The notes beneath the pieces are model-generated. The model was not told the DNA's origin, did not search any database, and saw nothing but the letters and a program-made list of their open reading frames with translations. A DNA stretch of 64,000 nucleotides from contig CAZKWX010000002.1 in NCBI GenBank assembly GCA_964556685.1, forward strand, positions 10,541 through 74,540. Direction: 5' to 3'. A program made the translations under genes and the position numbers. Numbering within the stretch: position 1 is the stretch's first letter; every line of letters begins with the position of its first letter. The DNA is from an uncultured Bdellovibrionales bacterium. GTDB lineage: Bacteria > Patescibacteriota > Minisyncoccia > Moranbacterales > DUUL01. Positions 2,708 through 61,318 of the stretch are shown one piece after another.

Positions 2708-3212
2708 AAAATTTAGCAAGTGAGATTTGGGAGAATATAAAAAATATCAATCAATCACTAAGAGGAGGTTTCTCATGGCAGATGAAACACATTCGCTTCA
2801 AGTAATGATCTATGGAGGTGCGCTTGATGGATTTTTTTCCTTGATTGCGAAAACAATGAAAACTCTTGATGATCCACGAGAAAAACACCACAATGATTCT
2901 TTGGGATATATTTCTTCACGAATTGCACAATTTTTGAAAGAAAAATTCGAAAGAGCTCTCATTGAGAACGGTTATTTTGAAAATGAAGTTTCCGGAAAGA
3001 TTGATGAAGTAATGGATTTTTTCAGGAGAATCGAGAATGTGGAAAAGTAACAAAAAAGGAAATTTGAAAGAAGTGAGCAGGTCTCGATGAACGCATCTGA
3101 AAACCTGCTCCCTAAATCTCACTGGCTAAATTGCATGTCATCCTCGCGAATGCGGGGATCCATTAGGTCAGGGAGTATCGAACAAATAGATTCCCGCCTT
3201 CGCGGGAATGAC
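2708..3212 (+). other. repeat-bounded cassette 1: IR-L (2708-2732), small ORF, IR-R (3110-3132), conserved hairpin H1 (3137-3212)
   Basis: aaaatttagcaagtgagatttggga at 2708 is inverted relative to ccctaaatctcactggctaaatt at 3110. H1 arms are gtcatcctcgcgaatgcgggga and ttcccgccttcgcgggaatgac. The whole architecture repeats at 3230-4075. Confidence 0.6.
2775..3050 (+). CDS. hypothetical small protein (91 aa) inside cassette 1
   Basis: AGGAGG Shine-Dalgarno at 2762-2767, 7 nt upstream of ATG 2775. No recognisable family. The longer ORF-track start at 2727 lacks an RBS. Confidence 0.5.
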   Translation: MADETHSLQVMIYGGALDGFFSLIAKTMKTLDDPREKHHNDSLGYISSRIAQFLKEKFERALIENGYFENEVSGKIDEVMDFFRRIENVEK

Positions 3213-3283
3213 AAATGTAATGTTCATTTAAAATTTAGCAAGTGAGATTTGGGAATCTTTGAAAATGGGAAAGGAGTACAAAA

Positions 3284-3916: not shown

Positions 3917-4124
3917 TTTGGGGGATGAAAGGAAATAAAATTTCTAGTCCTCCCCAAATCTCACTGGCTAAATTAAATGTCATTCTTGTGTCGCATCGAG
4001 TGCGGCATAAACTACAGCGGGGATCCATTGGGCTGAGGCATCAAGCTAATAGATTCCCGCCTGCGCGGGAATGACAAACAGGGAAATACAAAATATAAAA
4101 TACTAGCTACTAGCTACTAATCTC

Positions 4125-13841: not shown

Positions 13842-13857
13842 AAAATTTCTTATAACA

Positions 13858-13953
13858 AAAAATCCCGCATCGGCGGGGTTTTTTGTTGTAGTCAACCACC
13901 CCTGCGATCCCGCTTGGCGGGATCTTTCCCCTCCTTTCCAAGGAGGGGATTAA
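13858..13953. terminator. bidirectional terminator cluster between convergent rpoC and rpsT
   Basis: aaaaaatcccgcatcggcggggttttttg is a hairpin plus T-run for the + strand. Further hairpins are gatcccgcttggcgggatc and cccctcctttccaaggagggg. Confidence 0.6.
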
Positions 13954-13962
13954 GGGGAGGTC

Positions 13963-16370: not shown

Positions 16371-17483
16371 ATGAATGATCTGGAGAAATTTTTAGCAGAA
16401 AATACAGTTGATGGAGGTTTTTTGCAATCGGAACACTGGGCCAAGTTTAAAAAAGAAACGGGTGCAGGGGTTTTTGAGTTTGGAGATAATAAAAGTTTCC
16501 GAGCGCTGGTGATTGAGCACAAGCTTCCATTAGTGGGGAAGTATTGGTTTGTGCCACGCGGCCCCATAGTCTCGGCTAAAGCCGAGAAAATCCGAAATTC
16601 GAAATTCGAAGCTCCAAATAAATCCGAAATTTTAAATTCCAAATTGGAAAAAGAATTACATAATGTATTAAGTAAAGTATTATATAAGGCAAAAGAGAAT
16701 AAGATTGGGTGGATTAGAGTTGAAACGCAGAGGGGAAAGGATCTAAGAAAAATAAAAAATACAATCGAGAAGGTTAAAACTGAAAATCCCCCTCAGTCCC
16801 CCTTTTCCAAAGGGGGAGGAAAAATAGTGAAGGCGAAGAAGAATCATCAGCCGGCGCAAGTGATTATAATGGACTTAGCTGGAAGCGAGGAAGAAATTTT
16901 GAAAGACATGAAGTCGAAGACTCGCTATAACATCAGACTGAGCCAGAAAAAGGGCGTGGAAGTTTTTGAGACTAGAAAAAAAGAAGACATTGAAGTTTTC
17001 TGCGATTTGTTGGAAGAAACGGCCAAACGAGAAAAGATCACCAATCATCCCCGAAGACACTACCATGACTTGTTAAATAAAATAGACAAAAATTTTACAA
17101 AATTATACATAGCAAAATATGAAGAAAAAATTCTCTCTGGCGCAATAGTCAGTTATTATGGAAACGTAGCCGCCTATCTTCACGGAGCATCAAGTGATGA
17201 GCATCGGAACGTTATGTCGCCGTTTGATTTGCATTGGAAGATTATTCAAGATTCTAAGGCCAGAGGTTTTGAAAAATACGATCTCGGCGGAGTAAAACTA
17301 ATAGAAAAAGAAGACAAGTGGACACCAAAGGAAGGATCCTGGCAAGGCATCAGCCGGTTTAAGCTGGGATTTTGTCCCAAGTGCCAGCCAGTCGAATTTC
17401 CAGGCTGTTGGGATGTTATTTTGAATCTAGCTAAATATAGGCTGTATAAAATTCTGCAAGCGATCAAAGATTTGAGAAAGTAA
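16371..17483 (+). CDS. FemAB-family peptidoglycan interpeptide-bridge aminoacyltransferase (FemX/MurM-like) with a low-complexity insertion
   Basis: ...KTRYNIRLSQKKGVEVFET... and ...YYGNVAAYLHGASSDEHRNVMSPFDLHWKIIQDSKARGFEKYDLGG... are FemAB family motifs. Residues about 70-160 are a low-complexity insertion. Confidence 0.75.
   Translation: MNDLEKFLAENTVDGGFLQSEHWAKFKKETGAGVFEFGDNKSFRALVIEHKLPLVGKYWFVPRGPIVSAKAEKIRNSKFEAPNKSEILNSKLEKELHNVLSKVLYKAKENKIGWIRVETQRGKDLRKIKNTIEKVKTENPPQSPFSKGGGKIVKAKKNHQPAQVIIMDLAGSEEEILKDMKSKTRYNIRLSQKKGVEVFETRKKEDIEVFCDLLEETAKREKITNHPRRHYHDLLNKIDKNFTKLYIAKYEEKILSGAIVSYYGNVAAYLHGASSDEHRNVMSPFDLHWKIIQDSKARGFEKYDLGGVKLIEKEDKWTPKEGSWQGISRFKLGFCPKCQPVEFPGCWDVILNLAKYRLYKILQAIKDLRK
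16588..16650. repeat. in-frame simple repeat (gaaattc / aaattcc units) inside the FemAB CDS
   Basis: tccgaaattcgaaattcgaagctccaaataaatccgaaattttaaattccaaattgg encodes IRNSKFEAPNKSEILNSKLE. Confidence 0.8.
16786..16812. repeat. poly-C/poly-G hairpin palindrome inside the FemAB CDS
   Basis: ccccctcagtcccccttttccaaagggggagg forms ccccc-ttt/aaa-ggggg and encodes PPQSPFSKGGG in frame. Confidence 0.7.
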
Positions 17484-27133: not shown

Positions 27134-27565
27134 ATGCAAGAGGTAACAGTTATAATTCCTCATGGTTGTTGTCCGGGAATGCCAGGCAAATTTGTATTAA
27201 AACAAGATAGCAGGGGAAACGTTATTCTTCCTCCGAAAACAACGGGTACTTGCACCGGATGTCGCAAGGAAGATATAGGGACTGCCTTTGGAATTGAGTC
27301 CAAGGATGGCGAGATGGCCTCAATCCTCAATATGTTTGGCTGTCCCTTTTGTGGCAAAGGTAGAATGACAATGAGACTACTCATTAAGCATCCTAGGGCC
27401 ATGGAAGGCAAAGATAATTCTTCTGCGGCTGACGTTAAAATCGAATTCCTTGTTCAGGGCGAAGGGGGCAATGACGACCGAATCTCTTGTGACAACTGCA
27501 ATATGGAGTTAGTTGTTTCTGAGACGGGCTCTGTCCTTTTAAGTTGCCCTTGGCAAGAAGACTAA
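27134..27565 (+). CDS. hypothetical Cys-rich small protein (143 aa; CCPG, CTGC, CPFC, CDNC pairs)
   Basis: Strong RBS taggagg upstream. Four CxxC-like pairs suggest Zn-ribbon(s). Local GC is somewhat higher than in the flanks. Confidence 0.55.
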   Translation: MQEVTVIIPHGCCPGMPGKFVLKQDSRGNVILPPKTTGTCTGCRKEDIGTAFGIESKDGEMASILNMFGCPFCGKGRMTMRLLIKHPRAMEGKDNSSAADVKIEFLVQGEGGNDDRISCDNCNMELVVSETGSVLLSCPWQED

Positions 27566-27652: not shown

Positions 27653-28174
27653 ACTAGATGCAGGAATAGATTCTGAGACGAGGCTTCTTTTGAACGTTAG
27701 TACGGACGTTATAACGTACGTACTAACGAAGCTCGCGGTTCCACTCAGGTTTTTCGCCCCTCCCTTTACAAAGGGAGGTTGGGAGGGTTTTTCATTAAAA
27801 GTATAGACCGAAAACTCCCTCATTCCCCCTTTAAAAAGGGGGAGGCAAAACACTCTCTGATTGTTTTTGGCTTAGTCCCTTGTTTTTGACTGTAGCGACG
27901 TATATAAGCGTCGCCTACATTGCGTGTACACATTGTGCGCGCATATATCGAGTACATTTGCAAGCTAGGGAAGTGAACGTGGCAGTGCCACGTTCCTACG
28001 TATTTGGTAGACACATCAATCACCAAGAGAACTAAAGTTTATTATATTAGTTTGTAGAAAAATGTCAAATCCTATTAAGTCTGAATGACAAAGCTCAAAT
28101 GCCAAATCAAATCCAAAATCCAAATAGAAATTACTTAATTTAGCATTGATTTGTTATTTTTGATTTAAAATTTG

Positions 28175-31100
28175 TCATTCTATGGATACATTTTCTTTCC
28201 CGACTATATTTCTGATTTTGTCGACTACTACTTCGTCATAGTCAATCTGATGAGGTGTTTCTAACTTTGAACCATTATCTTCGGTGGTCAAATAGACTCG
28301 GCATTTGCCTTTTTCAGCGCTGCAGACCACTTGAGATATTTTTTCTAAAACATCATTGCCGCATTGGTCACCAATGCAAACGGTAATGTTTTTTTTGATC
28401 GGTTGATTGATATTATTACTAATAGACGTGTTAAAATTATTTGTATTATTCATACCAAACCCCCCCTTAGTCCCCCCCTTGGTAAGGGGGGGAGAATTAC
28501 GAGTGAGTAATTCTCGGGGGGATCTGTCTGATTCAGAATTTTTATATTTTTGTAATTCTTCCTTATCAACAATAAAACCATCCTCGCAAAGCAGTTTCCA
28601 TTCGCCCTCTTTTTCAGAAAGTCTTCCTTTGGCCAAAATGACTTTTTCTTCTTGCCAAACATCTGGATCTTTTTCAAGAGTCTTGGGGAAGACTAGGCCT
28701 TCTATTTTTCCAACTCCATCTTCAATGACAGCAAAATACATCAGCTGATTGTTTCGAGTGTAGACTTTTTGAATTTTTGTAATGATTCCACCGATGGTCA
28801 CTGTTTGATTGGTGTGATCGCGAGTGATGCTTCGGATGGGCAGAGCTTTAGCTGAAAAATAATCCTGATAGCCGCGCAGTGGATGGTCAGAGACATAAAG
28901 CCCTAAAAGCTCTTTTTCCCAGGAAAGCCTTTGATTTTTTGAAGCTGGGGGAACATCCTTGAGGGTGATTTCAGGAGATTGAATAGTCTGTTCTCCGCCC
29001 ATGGCGAAAATGGAAGACTGGCCGTTGGACGAATTTTTCTGAAAATCTTTAGAGTGAGCTAGTAGTGTTTCTATATTTTGAATCACTTTGTTTCGATTGC
29101 CATCAACAATGCTGTCCAGCGCGCCTGATTTGGCTAAAGACTCAATAGATTTTTTGTTAAGATCTTTGTCTTGAATTCGTTCAATCAGGTTAATAATGTC
29201 TTTGTAGGGACCATCTTTCTTGCGCTGCTCAATGATTTCTTCAGCAATGTGAGCGCCTACACCCTTGATGGCTTCGAGGCCAAAACGAATTTTTGGCTGA
29301 TCAGTTTGAGCCGTTTCAGCAATTACTGCGAAATCTCGAAAACTTTCGTTCACGTCGGGAGCGAGAACTTCAATGCCTATACCGCGAACTTCTTCAATTT
29401 CAATGGCAATCCGATCAATGTCGTCTTTGTCAGAGTTGAGCAAAGCAGCCATGAATTGAGCCGGATAGTGAGCTTTAAGATAGGCGGTTTGATAGCCGAT
29501 CAGGGCATAGCAAGCAGCGTGAGAACGATTAAAACCATAACCGGCAAAAGGTTCGACAAAAGAAAAAACTTTTTCAGCCAGTTTTCGATCCACTCCATTT
29601 TTCACACAGCCATCAATAAATTTGGCTTTCTCCTCCTGAATCAATTCATGAATCTTCTTTCCCATAGCTTTTCGCAGCACGTCTGCTTCTCCGGGAGAAA
29701 ATCCAGCCAATTCTCGAGCAATCTGCATCACCTGCTCTTGATAGACTGCCACGCCATAGGTCTTTTCCAAGATGGGTTTGAGTTTGGGGTGAAGATAGGT
29801 GGCTTTCTTGCGACCATGTTTTCCAGCAATGAAATCAGGAATCCACTCCATCGGTCCGGGTCGATAGAGAGCTACCATAGCAATGACGTCTTCAAAAGTG
29901 GTGGGTTTGAGTTGGCGCAGATTTCTTTTCATGCCGCCAGATTCCAGCTGGAACACGCCAGTGGTGTCTCCTCGTTGCAGCAACTGATAGGTGTCTAAAT
30001 CATCCAGAGGGATAGTTTCAATGTTAATCTTTTTACCAGTAGTTTTTTCGACAATTTTCAGAGTGTTTTCAATAATAGTAAGATTTTTTAATCCCAAAAA
30101 GTCCATTTTCAAAAGTCCAATTTTCTCCACATAGGAAGTCTTGGAGGAGGCACTATATTGCGTGACAATAATTTGTTCTTCTGAGCCTTTGCGTCCAGCC
30201 ATATATTGAAGGGGAGTGTAGCTGACAACTGGCTCTTTGGTGATCACCACTCCACAGGCATGCACTGAAGCATGACGCGCTACTCCTTCAAGTCGCAACG
30301 CAGCGTCGATAACATTTTTAGCATCTTCATTAGTATTATATTCATTAATTAACTCCTTAGAGCTTTCCAATGCATCCTTGAGCTTGGTGAACATGGGAAC
30401 CGTTTTGGCTAATTTGTCGCAATAGGAATATTCCACTCCTAAAACCCTTCCAGCATCACGAATGGCAGCTCGAGCGGCCATGGTTCCAAAGGTAATGATC
30501 TGGGCCACGTGGTCATTGCCATATTTTTTTCGCACATAGTCTAAAACTTCATCTCTTCGATGATCAGCAAAGTCAATGTCAACATCCGGCATGGAGATTC
30601 GATCGGGATTCAAAAATCGCTCAAAAAGCAGTTCGTATTTAATGGGATCGATATCAGTGGTGTTGGTCAAATATGAAACAAAACTGCCAGCGGCGCTTCC
30701 TCGGCCAGGACCCACAATGATGCCAGAATCTTTGGCCCAGTTGATGAAATCTTGAACGATCAGGAAATAGGAAGAGAAGCCCATTTTCTCAAGCACGCCT
30801 AGCTCATATTCAAGTCTTTCCTGGTGTTCTTTGGTGTAACCTTCTTTGTCCGGGTATCTTTTTTCAATGCCTTCCTGGCAGAGTTTTCTCAAATATGAAT
30901 CAGGGGTGAAGCCGTCAGGAACACTGAAATGGGGGAGCAGAATTTCTCCAAATTTTATTTTCACGTCACATTGCTTGGCGATCTTTTGAGTGTTTTCAAT
31001 AGCTTCGGGAGTCTCCTTGAAAAACTCGATCATCTCCTCGGGGCTTTTCAAATAGAGGGCTGAATCAGCCATGGACAATCGATTAGTGTCGGCCACTTTT

Positions 31101-31852
31101 TTGTTGGTTTGAATGCAAACTAAAATGTCCTGAACAGAATTGTCGTCAGGATTGACATAATGAATGTCAGCGGTAGCGACCAAAGGAATACCAGTTTCTT
31201 TCGAAATTTGTTTCAATCCCTCATTAGCAATTTTTTGTTTTTCTAGGTTGGGCTGATGGTGCAATTCAAGATAGTAGTTTCCTTTGCCAAAAATTTCCTG
31301 ATAGTCTAGCGCCTTTTCCTTGGCCGCATCCAGCTTTTTGGAAATAATCAGTTGAGCTGGCTCTCCTTGAATGCAACCACTCATGCCAATGAGGCCCTCA
31401 GAATATTTTTTAAGCAATTCCATGTCCACTCGAGGCTTGTAATAATAACCCTGAAGGTGAGCCTCAGTCACCAATTTCATGAGATTCTTGTAGCCCTGAT
31501 TGTTTTTAGCTATCAGGGTCAGGTGATAGCGCTCGTCATCAATGTTAGGCCGCTTGTTGTGCATCCCGTTGGGAGCAACATACATTTCACAGCCAATGAT
31601 TGGTTTAATGCCGCGTTTGGTGGCTTTTTCATAAAACTCAATCACGCCATACATGGTGCCATGGTCAGTGATGGCGATGGAATCCATGCCTAACTCCTCG
31701 ACCTTGTCGAGAATATCATCAATTTTTCCCAGACCATCTAGGAGGCTATAGTGAGTGTGAACATGAAGATGAGTAAACCGAGCTGGTTTACTTGTTTCTT
31801 GCCCTGCGGAAGCAGGGCTTCTTTGCAGGGTTTGATTTTCTGATTTTGGCAT
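28175..31852 (-). CDS. dnaE: DNA polymerase III alpha subunit (DnaE-type) with a Cys-containing C-terminal extension
   Basis: PHP domain HLHVHTHYSLLDG..., polymerase core motifs, and an OB fold. The last ~120 aa are unusual: they include the NSPPLTKGGTKGGFG hairpin-derived segment and a CIGDQCGN...CSAEKGKC cluster. Confidence 0.93.
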   Translation of the reverse strand: MPKSENQTLQRSPASAGQETSKPARFTHLHVHTHYSLLDGLGKIDDILDKVEELGMDSIAITDHGTMYGVIEFYEKATKRGIKPIIGCEMYVAPNGMHNKRPNIDDERYHLTLIAKNNQGYKNLMKLVTEAHLQGYYYKPRVDMELLKKYSEGLIGMSGCIQGEPAQLIISKKLDAAKEKALDYQEIFGKGNYYLELHHQPNLEKQKIANEGLKQISKETGIPLVATADIHYVNPDDNSVQDILVCIQTNKKVADTNRLSMADSALYLKSPEEMIEFFKETPEAIENTQKIAKQCDVKIKFGEILLPHFSVPDGFTPDSYLRKLCQEGIEKRYPDKEGYTKEHQERLEYELGVLEKMGFSSYFLIVQDFINWAKDSGIIVGPGRGSAAGSFVSYLTNTTDIDPIKYELLFERFLNPDRISMPDVDIDFADHRRDEVLDYVRKKYGNDHVAQIITFGTMAARAAIRDAGRVLGVEYSYCDKLAKTVPMFTKLKDALESSKELINEYNTNEDAKNVIDAALRLEGVARHASVHACGVVITKEPVVSYTPLQYMAGRKGSEEQIIVTQYSASSKTSYVEKIGLLKMDFLGLKNLTIIENTLKIVEKTTGKKINIETIPLDDLDTYQLLQRGDTTGVFQLESGGMKRNLRQLKPTTFEDVIAMVALYRPGPMEWIPDFIAGKHGRKKATYLHPKLKPILEKTYGVAVYQEQVMQIARELAGFSPGEADVLRKAMGKKIHELIQEEKAKFIDGCVKNGVDRKLAEKVFSFVEPFAGYGFNRSHAACYALIGYQTAYLKAHYPAQFMAALLNSDKDDIDRIAIEIEEVRGIGIEVLAPDVNESFRDFAVIAETAQTDQPKIRFGLEAIKGVGAHIAEEIIEQRKKDGPYKDIINLIERIQDKDLNKKSIESLAKSGALDSIVDGNRNKVIQNIETLLAHSKDFQKNSSNGQSSIFAMGGEQTIQSPEITLKDVPPASKNQRLSWEKELLGLYVSDHPLRGYQDYFSAKALPIRSITRDHTNQTVTIGGIITKIQKVYTRNNQLMYFAVIEDGVGKIEGLVFPKTLEKDPDVWQEEKVILAKGRLSEKEGEWKLLCEDGFIVDKEELQKYKNSESDRSPRELLTRNSPPLTKGGTKGGFGMNNTNNFNTSISNNINQPIKKNITVCIGDQCGNDVLEKISQVVCSAEKGKCRVYLTTEDNGSKLETPHQIDYDEVVVDKIRNIVGKENVSIE
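28459..28524. repeat. two adjacent palindromic hairpins inside the dnaE CDS
   Basis: ccccccttagtccccccttggtaagggggggag, then gagaattac-gagtga-gtaattctc with a perfect 9-bp stem. Confidence 0.75.
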
Positions 31853-39811: not shown

Positions 39812-40577
39812 CGCGCTAGTATCAGGTATTTTGTATTAAGTATTGTGTATGACGTATATACGTCCGTATATACGTTGGTATGTACTACGAAATGGCTCCT
39901 CATGGCGCTGTTTTTATTTTGAAAAACAAAAACCTAGACCTCACTACCATATAACCTTATATGGTAAAATTGGTTTTTTGGACTAAAAAAGGGAGATCCA
40001 ACGTTTCTGATAGTTAGATTCTCCCATTATTGGCCGTCCACTGTCGGTCAAGAACAAAAATTCAAGCTATGAATGAAAAGGGCGGGTCTTAAAGCTTATA
40101 TACTGGCAGGGACAACCCTTTCTGTTCATAAGCGAGGTTCCCGTAGGCGAGCCCCACCTCCGAAATTGCTGAAAGCAGATTTCCCTTACTCGATTTTTTG
40201 TAAAATCACGACAGTTTCTGGGAAGATAGTCGCCTAGGAGTATTATCACATTATTACTCCCTTACTTGTAAGCTCAGGACGTTGACTTTCAGTGATATAG
40301 TCCTTTCCCACAGATCGGTCGATCTATCTTCGTTGGTGCTGATCTTCCATGGACGTAATAGGTAATCGATTTTACACATGTTCCTACTACTGAAGCAATA
40401 ATTTAACAGCCTGGACATACTGTTAAAATGCCTCTATTACCAGCACCGAAAGCTTATATTCAATTAAGTACTACCTGTATTTAAGCACTTTTAGGATGTC
40501 TTGTCAATGTTTATGAAAATTGGCCTAAAAACTGCAAGTTTGGCTATTTTTTGCTATAATTACATCGAATAGACTTA

Positions 40578-45566: not shown

Positions 45567-46790
45567 ATGAAAATTTTAACCATTGCTGCAACACCGTTTT
45601 TTTCAAGCCGAGGCAGTCACATTCGGATATATAACGAAGCGAAATATCTCCAAAAAATGGGAGCGGAGGTTTTGATTTGTGCCTATCACAATGGAGAAGA
45701 CGTTGAAAGCCTGAATATTTCAAGAATTTCTGATGTAAGTTGGTATAAAAAAACCTCGCCAGGATTTTCCTGGGGAAAGATTTGGTGCGATCTAAAGCTG
45801 ATAACGTTGGTCAGAAAGGAAATAAAAAAGTTTCAACCTGATGTGATCCATGCGCATTTATTTGAGAGTTTAGGGACAGGATGGGTGGCTGGACTGGCGA
45901 TCGGTTTCCGAAACCGGGTACTCGGTTTTGGAAACCAAAGGAAGATTCCAATTGTTTTGGACTTGCAAGGGGATTTGAAAAAAGAGTTTGAGAGTTACAA
46001 CAAGAAAAACAGCTTGGCTAAAATTTTTTTTGTGGCGATGTCGAAGTGGCTGATCAATAAAGCTGATGCCATGGTGGTCAGCAGCGAGAACGCACTAGAA
46101 TCGGCCAAAGAAAATTACAAAAATCCGGACGAAATAATGGTGATTAAAGATGGGATCGATTTGGAAATGTTTAGAGACACAAAAGAGACTGAAGAAAATT
46201 CAGAAGTTAATAAAATAAAAACTTGGCAGGGAAGTGATAAGTTATTGGTTTATACTGGAGGTTTGGAAAATAGCAAGGGTGTCGGTGAATTACTTAATAC
46301 TTTTAATACTGGGGATACAAACGGATGGAAGTTGTTGCTGTTTGGCCAAGGAGCGGATCGACGTAAGTACGTACGTATGTACGTACCTGGGAACGTACAT
46401 GATGTTAAAGAAAATTATCCATACAACAATGAAAGAATCTGGTTTAGTAGTGAAAGTGGATATTTTTCTTTACCAAATTATTTGCGATTGACTGATGCGG
46501 CTATCGATCCTAAAAGAGATTCAACAGAGAGCAGCGGAAAACTGGTTAACTACATGGCAGCGGGATTGCCAATAATTTGTTTTGATAATGATTTCAATCG
46601 AAGTGTGTTGAGGGACCAGGGAATTTATATAAACGAAATGGGTCAGCTGAGTGACGCTTTGAAAAAAGCCGAAGCTAGTGATAGAATAAATTATGATCTG
46701 GAAAAGAATAGCGAAGAGAAAGAAGCAGAAAAACTCTTTGAGATTATAGGAAGGATAACCAGCGCCAACAACCAACCCGTGGCCAATTAA
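45567..46790 (+). CDS. glycosyltransferase family 4
   Basis: GT-B fold, with GT4 C-terminal motifs (...KLVNYMAAGLPIICFDN...). Contains the in-frame gtacgtacgtatgtacgtac repeat at 46358-46392. Confidence 0.8.
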   Translation: MKILTIAATPFFSSRGSHIRIYNEAKYLQKMGAEVLICAYHNGEDVESLNISRISDVSWYKKTSPGFSWGKIWCDLKLITLVRKEIKKFQPDVIHAHLFESLGTGWVAGLAIGFRNRVLGFGNQRKIPIVLDLQGDLKKEFESYNKKNSLAKIFFVAMSKWLINKADAMVVSSENALESAKENYKNPDEIMVIKDGIDLEMFRDTKETEENSEVNKIKTWQGSDKLLVYTGGLENSKGVGELLNTFNTGDTNGWKLLLFGQGADRRKYVRMYVPGNVHDVKENYPYNNERIWFSSESGYFSLPNYLRLTDAAIDPKRDSTESSGKLVNYMAAGLPIICFDNDFNRSVLRDQGIYINEMGQLSDALKKAEASDRINYDLEKNSEEKEAEKLFEIIGRITSANNQPVAN

Positions 46791-56286: not shown

Positions 56287-56318
56287 TCCATAACAGAAGT
56301 TACGCAGTCTATGTTTGA

Positions 56319-56396
56319 TTTTCCGCAAGCAAGGTATTTTTGCCAAATGTTCACTCCGTTTCCTAAGGTGTCAAAAATACCTTGCTTGCGGGAAAT
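56319..56396 (+). repeat. long-stem hairpin element, copy 1 (22-bp stem, ~29-nt loop)
   Basis: ttttccgcaagcaaggtatttttg (56319-56342) is the perfect reverse complement of caaaaataccttgcttgcgggaaa (56372-56395). The loop ccaaatgttcactccgtttcctaaggtgt is conserved in copy 2. Confidence 0.85.
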
Positions 56397-61196: not shown

Positions 61197-61239
61197 AAAA
61201 TTACAAGGGTTGCGCACCTCCCCGCTTAACTTAACGGAA

Positions 61240-61318
61240 ATTTCCCGCAAGCAAAGCATTTTTGCCAAACGTTCACTTCGTTTCCTAAGGTGTCAAAAAT
61301 ACCTTACTTGCGGGAAAT
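61240..61318 (+). repeat. long-stem hairpin element, copy 2
   Basis: atttcccgcaagcaaagcatttttg ... caaaaataccttacttgcgggaaat. Same loop as copy 1. The stem has 3 mismatches. Confidence 0.85.

Follow-up and report, generated by a model that had tools for sequence, protein, structure and literature searches.

A small repeat with the sequence of an intrastrand triplex motif, and its in-frame copies in dnaE and a FemAB-family gene of a Patescibacteria genome

Background

What are the short hairpins, a run of C facing a run of G, that recur along a 64,000-nucleotide stretch of contig CAZKWX010000002.1 (the window, taken at its full length), and how do two of them come to lie in the reading frames of essential genes, dnaE and the gene of a FemAB-family transferase? 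The original prediction, made from the sequence alone, saw in five such sites one dispersed element family, and likened the two coding copies to the Rickettsia palindromic elements (RPE). The five sites do belong to one dispersed family. We think it probable that they are copies of a small dispersed repeat of the class II intrastrand triplex motif type, and that the copies in dnaE and the FemAB-family gene survive as passengers.

To our knowledge, few small repeats of bacteria are as conserved as intrastrand triplex motifs, and we know of no function or means of spread for them.

Results

Five three-arm units in the window

A scan of the window for perfect hairpins (stem of at least 8, loop of at most 5, 5' arm all pyrimidine with at least four C) returns exactly five C-arm/G-arm hairpins, against a mean of 0.017 and a maximum of 1 in 60 dinucleotide-preserving shuffles. 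Their positions agree to within a few bases with those of the sites first predicted, which were correctly described as hairpins; a third, mirror-image arm and the opposite orientations of the copies had been missed. Every hairpin has this third G-rich arm a 3-nt loop away, mirroring the purine arm and giving units of 32-36 nt. The outer run is the mirror image of the adjacent arm and not a direct copy of it; copy 1, for instance, has TTA and then AGGGGAGG after the arm AAGGAGGGGA. Alignment of the copies shows the unit to be asymmetric, three copies having a second C-run 4 nt upstream of the hairpin and the remaining two a second G-run 3-4 nt downstream of it, and the copies are therefore one unit in opposite orientations (two against three). 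The copies, and an appendage to the last of them, are listed here with their positions relative to coding sequences (CDS) and open reading frames (ORFs).

13927-13962, plus strand: copy 1, TCCCCTCCTT-tcc-AAGGAGGGGA-tta-AGGGGAGGTC; hairpin at 13927-13949 (stem 10, loop 3); 10 triads (1 mismatch) or 9 perfect ones; intergenic, flanked by the stop codons of rpoC (13841) and of the convergent rpsT (S20; 13963)
16784-16817, minus strand: copy 2, minus-strand reading TCCCCCTTT-gga-AAAGGGGGA-ctg-AGGGGGATT; hairpin at 16797-16817 (stem 9, loop 3); within the FemAB-family CDS
27759-27790, plus strand: copy 3, CCTCCCTTT-ac-AAAGGGAGG-ttg-GGAGGGTTT; hairpin at 27759-27778 (stem 9, loop 2); 9 triads, 0 mismatches; intergenic, between a 143-aa ORF (27134-27565, plus strand) and the dnaE 3' end
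27812-27843, minus strand: copy 4, minus-strand reading TCCCCCTTT-tt-AAAGGGGGA-atg-AGGGAGTTT; hairpin at 27824-27843 (stem 9, loop 2); 9 triads, 1 mismatch; intergenic, downstream of dnaE
28458-28493, minus strand: copy 5, minus-strand reading TCCCCCCCTT-acc-AAGGGGGGGA-cta-AGGGGGGGTT; hairpin at 28471-28493 (stem 10, loop 3); 10 triads, 0 mismatches; within dnaE
28492-28523, plus strand: appendage of copy 5, a perfect 9-bp hairpin at 28492-28515, then GGGGGGAT at 28516-28523 (G6 at 28516-21)

The same five sites, and nothing else in the window, are returned by a scan with the published ITxF class II (purine-motif) criteria: in order, a pyrimidine arm, a loop of 1-6 nt, the complementary purine arm, a loop of 1-6 nt and a third arm antiparallel to the purine arm that pairs by G.G, A.A or T.A triads, with a stem of at least 8 triads, no more than one mismatch and a G/C content above 50%. 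No class II motif occurs in 200 dinucleotide shuffles, and when perfect stems of 6 or more are required the shuffles average 0.01. In all five copies the arms are 9-10 nt long, loop 1 measures 1-5 nt and the stem comprises 9-10 triads, while loop 2 is always 3 nt (TTA, CTG, TTG, ATG and CTA). Triad mismatches are absent from copies 3 and 5 and number one at full length in copies 1, 2 and 4, the first two of which are perfect at 9 triads. All five copies are base-for-base the same in independent Logan assemblies from several SRA runs (copy 1 in three assemblies and copy 3 in five), so the sequence is not an assembly artefact. The right flank of the source contig adds 9.4 kb to the window and holds no further copy.

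Some details of the individual sites deserve mention. One independent assembly (SRR29008691) has a C>A change at 28477, in the pyrimidine arm of the dnaE copy, which breaks one stem pair and replaces a Gly of the inserted peptide by Trp; both a genuine variant and a sequencing error in the homopolymer are possible. Right after rpoC (within 13850-13890) stands a bidirectional hairpin of terminator-like form, AAAAAATCCCGC-atcg-GCGGGGTTTTTT, and a second hairpin, GATCCCGC-ttg-GCGGGATC (13906-13924), abuts copy 1. Between rpoC and rpsT the window has a spacer of 122 nt, as against 73 nt in one relative (L170).

The same unit in other bacteria, viruses and plasmids

The pattern CCCTNANTCCCCCTT-N1-6-AAGGGGGAG, which has 22 specified bases and fits two of the window copies, was searched in one genome per GTDB species, where its rough chance expectation is below 1 over the whole collection. 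Matches were found in at least 120 genome stretches, which come from many phyla. The matches listed include Gamma- and Betaproteobacteria (Methylococcaceae, Xanthomonadaceae, Acinetobacter, Thiothrix) and delta-type lineages, along with Nitrospirota, Chloroflexota / Dehalococcoidia, Cyanobacteria, Acidobacteriota, Gemmatimonadota, Calditrichota, Bacteroidota and several candidate phyla, among them a metagenome-assembled genome (MAG) of Parcubacteria. These matches have in common a consensus of about 35 nt, AAATCCCCC-TYAR-TCCCCCTTT-loop-AAAGGGGGA, or more fully aAATCC-CCCT[CT]A[AGT]-TCCCCCTTT-loop-AAAGGGGGAG, in which bases beyond the search pattern (AAATCC) are conserved too. The same pattern is found in 45 IMG/VR viral stretches (L124-L168), some contigs carrying at least three copies, and in Acinetobacter and cyanobacterial plasmids, there always outside annotated features.

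Class II motifs number about 410 over the fetched genome and viral loci, with 127 of them in 411 kb of viral-contig loci. Of 413 motifs, 333 have a loop 2 of 3 nt, chiefly TTG, TTA, CTG or CTA. About 9% of motifs lie deep inside long ORFs, as against 63% of random positions (genomes below 50% GC), which is a depletion of about 7-fold. Coding copies do nevertheless occur elsewhere: the Pfam LAGLIDADG domain in a Spirulina DnaB intein spans one (L078), the Pfam DUF2344 domain of an uncultured bacterium spans a pair (L120), and another pair lies within a DUF2064 ORF (L088). A protein-database search with a padded 41-column profile retrieved only 23 tiny ORFs (32-71 aa) free of domains, and was insensitive, missing the FemAB protein itself.

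Several features of these loci bear on annotation. Public gene calls include 32-71-aa "hypothetical proteins" (P0241-P0263) that are motif translations, for example in Desulforhabdus and Geobacteraceae, and such small proteins, like the PPxSPFxKGG segments of metagenomic proteins, can now be recognised as translated repeats. The motif also sits, in some genomes, inside longer tandem units with identical spacers (L010 4857-5206, L060 616-1026, L069 5489-5573, and L113, minus strand 3063-3210), the period being about 137-169 nt in Pseudoxanthomonas and, in two MAGs (one delta-type, one of Multivoradales), about 56-61 nt. Such arrays run the risk of being taken for CRISPR arrays.

Covariation of the third arm

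If the third arm belongs to a triple-stranded fold, its bases should follow those of the purine arm by the triad code. For the covariation test, hairpins were gathered blind to the third arm and kept if the G-run was interrupted by A. The downstream arm obeys the mirror (triad) rule at 85% or more of positions in 71 of the 160 interrupted-G-run instances, whereas the direct-repeat rule is obeyed in 13 of 160, all 13 being symmetric arms that fit both rules; with flanks shuffled by letter, the mean over all 556 instances is about 15.5. Opposite A stands either A or T, as in GGGAGAGGG then GGGTGAGGG and in AAAGAGGGG then GGGGAGATTT, which is the purine-motif triad code. Polymerase errors do not yield mirror repeats, but direct or inverted ones. 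Since the outer run is a mirror image, we rule out an attenuator-like reading with alternative hairpins, which would have it as a direct copy of the arm. Triad covariation is the strongest evidence that a three-arm fold, or whatever reads it, constrains these sequences.

Copies translated within dnaE and the FemAB-family gene

Two of the five window copies lie within genes and are translated in the frames first predicted. The dnaE gene is a 1225-aa ORF (28175-31852, minus strand) for DNA polymerase III alpha, reading ...SPRELLTRNSPPLTKGGTKGGFG..., in which copy 5 is translated in frame as SPPLTKGGTKGG. The FemAB-family transferase is a 370-aa ORF (16371-17483, plus strand), reading ...ENPPQSPFSKGGGK..., in which copy 2 is translated in frame as NPPQSPFSKGG (residues 139-149). 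Both translations are those first proposed, and the comparison with orthologues that the proposal called for bears out lineage-specific, in-frame insertion into length-variable loops or linkers.

The dnaE insert is missing in the 38 closest orthologues (65-74% identical), and its position is a hypervariable low-complexity linker from the OB fold to the C-terminal domain. In a 24-sequence alignment NPPQSPFSKGG appears only in the window protein, the segment being missing in 23 FemAB orthologues (identity at most 54%); most of them are about 11 or more residues shorter at the insert, in a stretch of variable length immediately ahead of the conserved KSKKNH motif. In the AlphaFold model of the protein (mean pLDDT, the predicted local distance difference test, of 92.3), residues 139-149 form a coil between a helix (122-138) and a strand (152-154), with pLDDT of 83-85. 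Gene order is kept in relatives (dnaE, thrS, a radical-SAM gene, a tetratricopeptide repeat (TPR) gene, Mur ligase, FemAB, RuvA, S20, rpoC), and 82 kb of their syntenic loci contain no class II motif, relaxed rules included, as against five in the window's 64 kb; the five copies are thus specific to the source lineage.

That both peptides could come from Pro and Gly codons lined up by chance, or be low-complexity protein with no repeat element behind it, was the case that might have overturned the proposal. Both do lie in low-complexity, length-variable protein regions. Against this, copy 2 fits 34 nt of the pan-bacterial consensus, AAATCC prefix included, a consensus mostly intergenic in unrelated phyla and matched at coding-unconstrained positions as well; the same architecture recurs in three non-coding copies, the residues are found in no orthologue, and five hairpins stand against 0.017 expected, with not one triplex motif in 200 shuffles. 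Coincidence is excluded on these grounds, and we give it next to no weight.

The elements are stop-free in 3-5 of the 6 reading frames. Since so many frames are open and the dnaE block (copy 5 with its appendage) measures 66 nt, or 22 codons, in-frame survival in a tolerant loop requires no special mechanism.

The FemAB protein has a second lineage-variable low-complexity segment, AEKIRNSKFEAPNKSEILNSKLEKE (16581-16640, residues about 71-90, pLDDT 54-71), and some orthologues have other inserts at that point (e.g. NKSQDPNKSQIPNSK) and elsewhere (LVFGAKRSKQKARLLA-type). The pattern of variable inserts suggests further repeat-derived coding insertions in that protein family.

The composite element in dnaE

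The extra perfect 9-bp hairpin that had been noted beside the dnaE copy (28492-28515) is real. It reads GAGAATTAC-GAGTGA-GTAATTCTC, a sequence that recurs neither in the window nor in any of the fetched loci, and together with its G-run and copy 5 it makes up the in-frame block at dnaE residues of about 1110-1132. The appendage G-run is Watson-Crick-compatible with the outer C-run (28461-28466), so that a three-way junction is possible; in the plus-strand reading the appendage GGGGGGAT is also triad-compatible with the purine arm and usable as a second third arm. For the composite as single-stranded DNA (ssDNA), a three-way junction is predicted on both strands, with minimum free energies of about -19.8 to -19.9 kcal/mol and z of -3.5 and -4.2. 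For the units, ViennaRNA predicts the hairpin only.

Compared with Rfam, the composite aligns over its full length (28470-28523, plus strand) to RF01762, whalefall-1, at 19.1 bits, which is below the gathering score of 37; the rest of the Rfam matches at the E-value threshold are sub-threshold noise. All 56 model positions are aligned, and the family consensus, judged by eye from the printed alignment, has a pyrimidine arm, a loop, a purine arm, a second hairpin and a triad-compatible G-rich tail. Whalefall-1 is, however, annotated as a small RNA (function unassigned) from whale-fall metagenomes, whereas the dnaE copy lies inside a CDS, antisense to the mRNA. As far as this alignment goes, the composite resembles whalefall-1 and is no member of it.

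Discussion

A known class, in a new sequence type and a new host

The window elements carry every sequence feature that defines a G/C-rich class II intrastrand triplex motif. These motifs are described by Holder et al. 2015 (PMC4666352), and were first named BoxC and later PIT elements (Hoyne et al. 2000, cited there). The E. coli type, TM_ECO, is CCCTCNCCC-N3-6-GGGNGAGGG-N3-GGGNGAGGG, with 3610 occurrences in 262 proteobacterial genomes; its second loops are TTA or CCG (type A having TTA), inverted pairs are frequent, and Cyanobacteria have hundreds of G/C-rich motifs according to the same paper (PMC4666352). TM_ECO is also associated there with local sequence instability between strains (PMC4666352).

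The layout of TM_ECO/BoxC/PIT elements is that of the window elements: a pyrimidine arm, loop 1, a purine arm, a 3-nt loop 2 and a mirror G-rich arm, with 9-10 triads and a TTA-like loop 2. Both are dispersed in either orientation, often as inverted pairs, with no linked transposase and with a patchy distribution among close relatives. The sequence itself differs, the window arms being C5-C7, CCCCTCC or CCTCCC followed by TT(T), with an AAA end, instead of CCCTCNCCC, and the TM_ECO consensus pattern has no match in the window. The host, a Patescibacteria genome of about 40% GC, is unlike that of TM_ECO, and one window copy (dnaE) is unlike TM_ECO in having an extra hairpin and a second G-run. 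The occurrence of the G5 pattern in viral and plasmid sequences contrasts with the published finding that TM_ECO is not tied to transposons, phages or plasmids (PMC4666352). The two types can also meet, TM_ECO-like units (GGGAGAGGG-TCA-GGGTGAGGG) sharing some 8-kb stretches, and hence genomes, with the G5 type, in several non-enterobacterial genomes. By these sequence comparisons the window elements are a new sequence type, in a new host, of the known class of G/C-rich class II intrastrand triplex motifs (BoxC/PIT/TM), and the class extends to Patescibacteria. What is also new is the near-identity of a consensus of about 35 nt over many phyla, viral contigs and plasmids, covarying by the triad code.

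The model family is exclusively intergenic ("always located intergenically", PMC4666352), whereas two of the five window copies are translated within essential genes. In-frame copies inside dnaE and a FemAB-family gene are previously unreported for this class. Literature searches for the window DNA strings, for the translated peptides and for triplex motifs in Patescibacteria returned nothing relevant.

Mirror repeats of the H-DNA kind have the same homopurine/homopyrimidine mirror symmetry and purine-motif triad code, and differ in that H-DNA needs merely a duplex mirror repeat under supercoiling, whereas a window unit has three arms on one strand and a Watson-Crick hairpin.

Alternative explanations

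The elements might instead be functional cis-acting signals in RNA or DNA (a 3'-end hairpin or terminator, an mRNA stabiliser, a Shine-Dalgarno/anti-Shine-Dalgarno decoy, or a whalefall-1-like RNA) whose coding copies are incidental. All three intergenic copies lie where gene ends converge (rpoC/rpsT, and the 143-aa ORF/dnaE), which speaks weakly for this, as do the arms CCTCCTT / AAGGAGG of copy 1 and the full-length though sub-threshold whalefall-1 match, of the same layout, in the dnaE composite. Against it, copies stand in both orientations relative to transcription, some of them are coding, and relatives lack the element in the same intergenic regions. The hairpins are not directly followed by a T-tract, and a terminator scan called none of the five stems, its one terminator-like site nearby (27839-27858) overlapping the edge of copy 4; at gathering thresholds, Rfam finds a tRNA in the window and nothing else. 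Published TM_ECO/PIT elements have no promoter or terminator activity, and purine-motif triplexes are not formed in RNA (PMC4666352). We hold this explanation to be improbable, and a reading of the motif as a Shine-Dalgarno/anti-Shine-Dalgarno mimic would be speculation.

Two kinds of mobile element come into question as well. Repetitive extragenic palindromes (REPs) and the bacterial interspersed mosaic elements (BIMEs) built of them are GC-rich palindromes of 20-40 nt, single or in inverted pairs and mostly extragenic, associated with the REP-associated tyrosine transposase (RAYT). A REP-like element would be mobilised by a Y1 transposase (RAYT / IS200-IS605-type) that reads a folded single strand, hairpin and short conserved loop together. 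The size and the hairpin of the window units agree with this, a conserved 3-nt YTR adjoins the hairpin foot, both orientations and inverted pairs occur, and the triad covariation suggests dependence on a single-strand fold. REPs, however, have no third mirror arm and are tied to a RAYT gene, whereas no RAYT-like ORF recurs near the elements in 120 loci: all-against-all BLAST of the ORFs within 4 kb on either side found no linked transposase, and only response regulators, ABC ATPases and methyltransferases recur. REP families are specific to a lineage or species, where the consensus here is common to many phyla; two window copies are not extragenic; and the E. coli relatives are, as published, not tied to mobile elements (PMC4666352). 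The chance that the elements are of this kind seems to us slim.

The second kind is the one to which the original prediction pointed, a non-autonomous transposon of the RPE type (a miniature inverted-repeat transposable element, MITE), mobilised in trans by a transposase and preferentially or frequently making in-frame fusions with ORFs. RPEs are palindromic repeats with in-frame copies in unrelated housekeeping genes, the peptide occupying a loop or linker compatible with the fold (PMC10969869), and the window family resembles them in these respects, being dispersed and palindromic, lineage-specific in its presence, and in frame in essential genes in two copies of five, with coding copies in other phyla too. 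So far the analogy holds as one of behaviour, namely tolerated in-frame coding copies. Membership in the RPE, or a new family of that kind, does not follow. RPEs are about 150 bp long (PMC10969869), come in ten sequence families, each with a conserved peptide, and have nearly half of their copies in ORFs; the window units, 32-36 nt (66 with the appendage), have a triad-coded third arm, are ORF-depleted overall rather than favouring coding positions, and are spread over many phyla, a separation made by size and description with no RPE sequence compared. Over 414 motifs, the junctions show direct repeats of 3-6 nt no more often than permuted flanks do, so that no target-site duplication is seen. 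The absence of a recurrent neighbour protein or transposase from the 120 loci counts here again, and terminal inverted repeats would come without a mirror-image third arm. An RPE-type transposon is thus an unlikely source of these elements, which behave like RPEs and belong by sequence to the known triplex-motif class.

How the elements might persist in genes

We return to the reading proposed at the outset, that the five sites are triplex-motif repeats and the coding copies passengers. As ssDNA a unit could form a hairpin, with the third arm occupying its major groove through G.G-C, A.A-T and T.A-T triads. Copies were probably gained recently in a Moranbacteria-like lineage, by a route that would not be transposase-based and is probably tied to ssDNA in replication or repair, and selection would purge most coding insertions. 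The dnaE and FemAB copies may persist as multiples of three with most reading frames free of stop codons, placed in a flexible linker and a surface loop, where they would contribute a coil rich in Pro and Gly (PPxxPxxKGG) probably lacking a dedicated protein function. They may also be local obstacles to replication or hot spots of instability, as reported for the E. coli relatives.

Several points weigh against this reading. The triplex fold of the window units rests on a sequence rule and on analogy with E. coli, where the TM_ECO triplex was seen by circular dichroism (CD) and nuclear magnetic resonance (NMR) for an isolated single strand only and was undetected in duplex DNA or in vivo (PMC4666352). 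No insertion event was caught and there is no empty site at the DNA level; with the nearest orthologues only 54-74% identical, gain as opposed to loss, and the exact junctions, are inferred. Near-identity of the consensus across phyla could be convergence on a structural optimum rather than ancestry or transfer. The coding fraction is based on about 74 kb of the source genome scanned, and the coding copies may have a function after all.

A bolder version is conceivable, in which the G5 type would be a single pan-bacterial selfish DNA element, carried on phages and plasmids too, that propagates via its triple-helical ssDNA fold, spreads without a transposase by some mechanism new to the literature, is currently active in small-genome candidate-phyla bacteria, and is remodelling the DnaE linker and the FemX loop in frame. 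Propagation that depends on the fold would explain the triad-code covariation over more than 15 phyla. We regard this version as tentative and rather doubtful.

How such elements move could well be studied in lineages whose coding insertions are fresh, and the same lineages can reveal the cost, if any, of a potential triplex in a replicase gene.

Other repeats in the window

A second repeat family, of about 60 nt, has two intergenic copies (3152-3215 and 4017-4077), each ending in the hairpin ATTCCCGCCT[TG]CGCGGGAATGAC. This hairpin also adjoins a triplex motif in a Dehalococcoidales MAG (L015), and the family may be another small hairpin repeat common to several phyla. The intergenic region of triplex copies 3 and 4 holds a near-perfect 34-nt palindrome, CGTTAGTACGGACGTTA|TAACGTACGTACTAACG (27695-27728); other palindromes of the window are rich in GTACGTAC or TATACG, including those at 46367-46398 and 39854-39885. 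An inverted repeat at 56318-56396, with 28-nt arms that are 93% complementary, has the core TTCC(C)GCAAGCAA in common with a palindrome at 61224-61257; the breaks of independent Logan contigs near 61.3 kb are what one would expect at a repeat.

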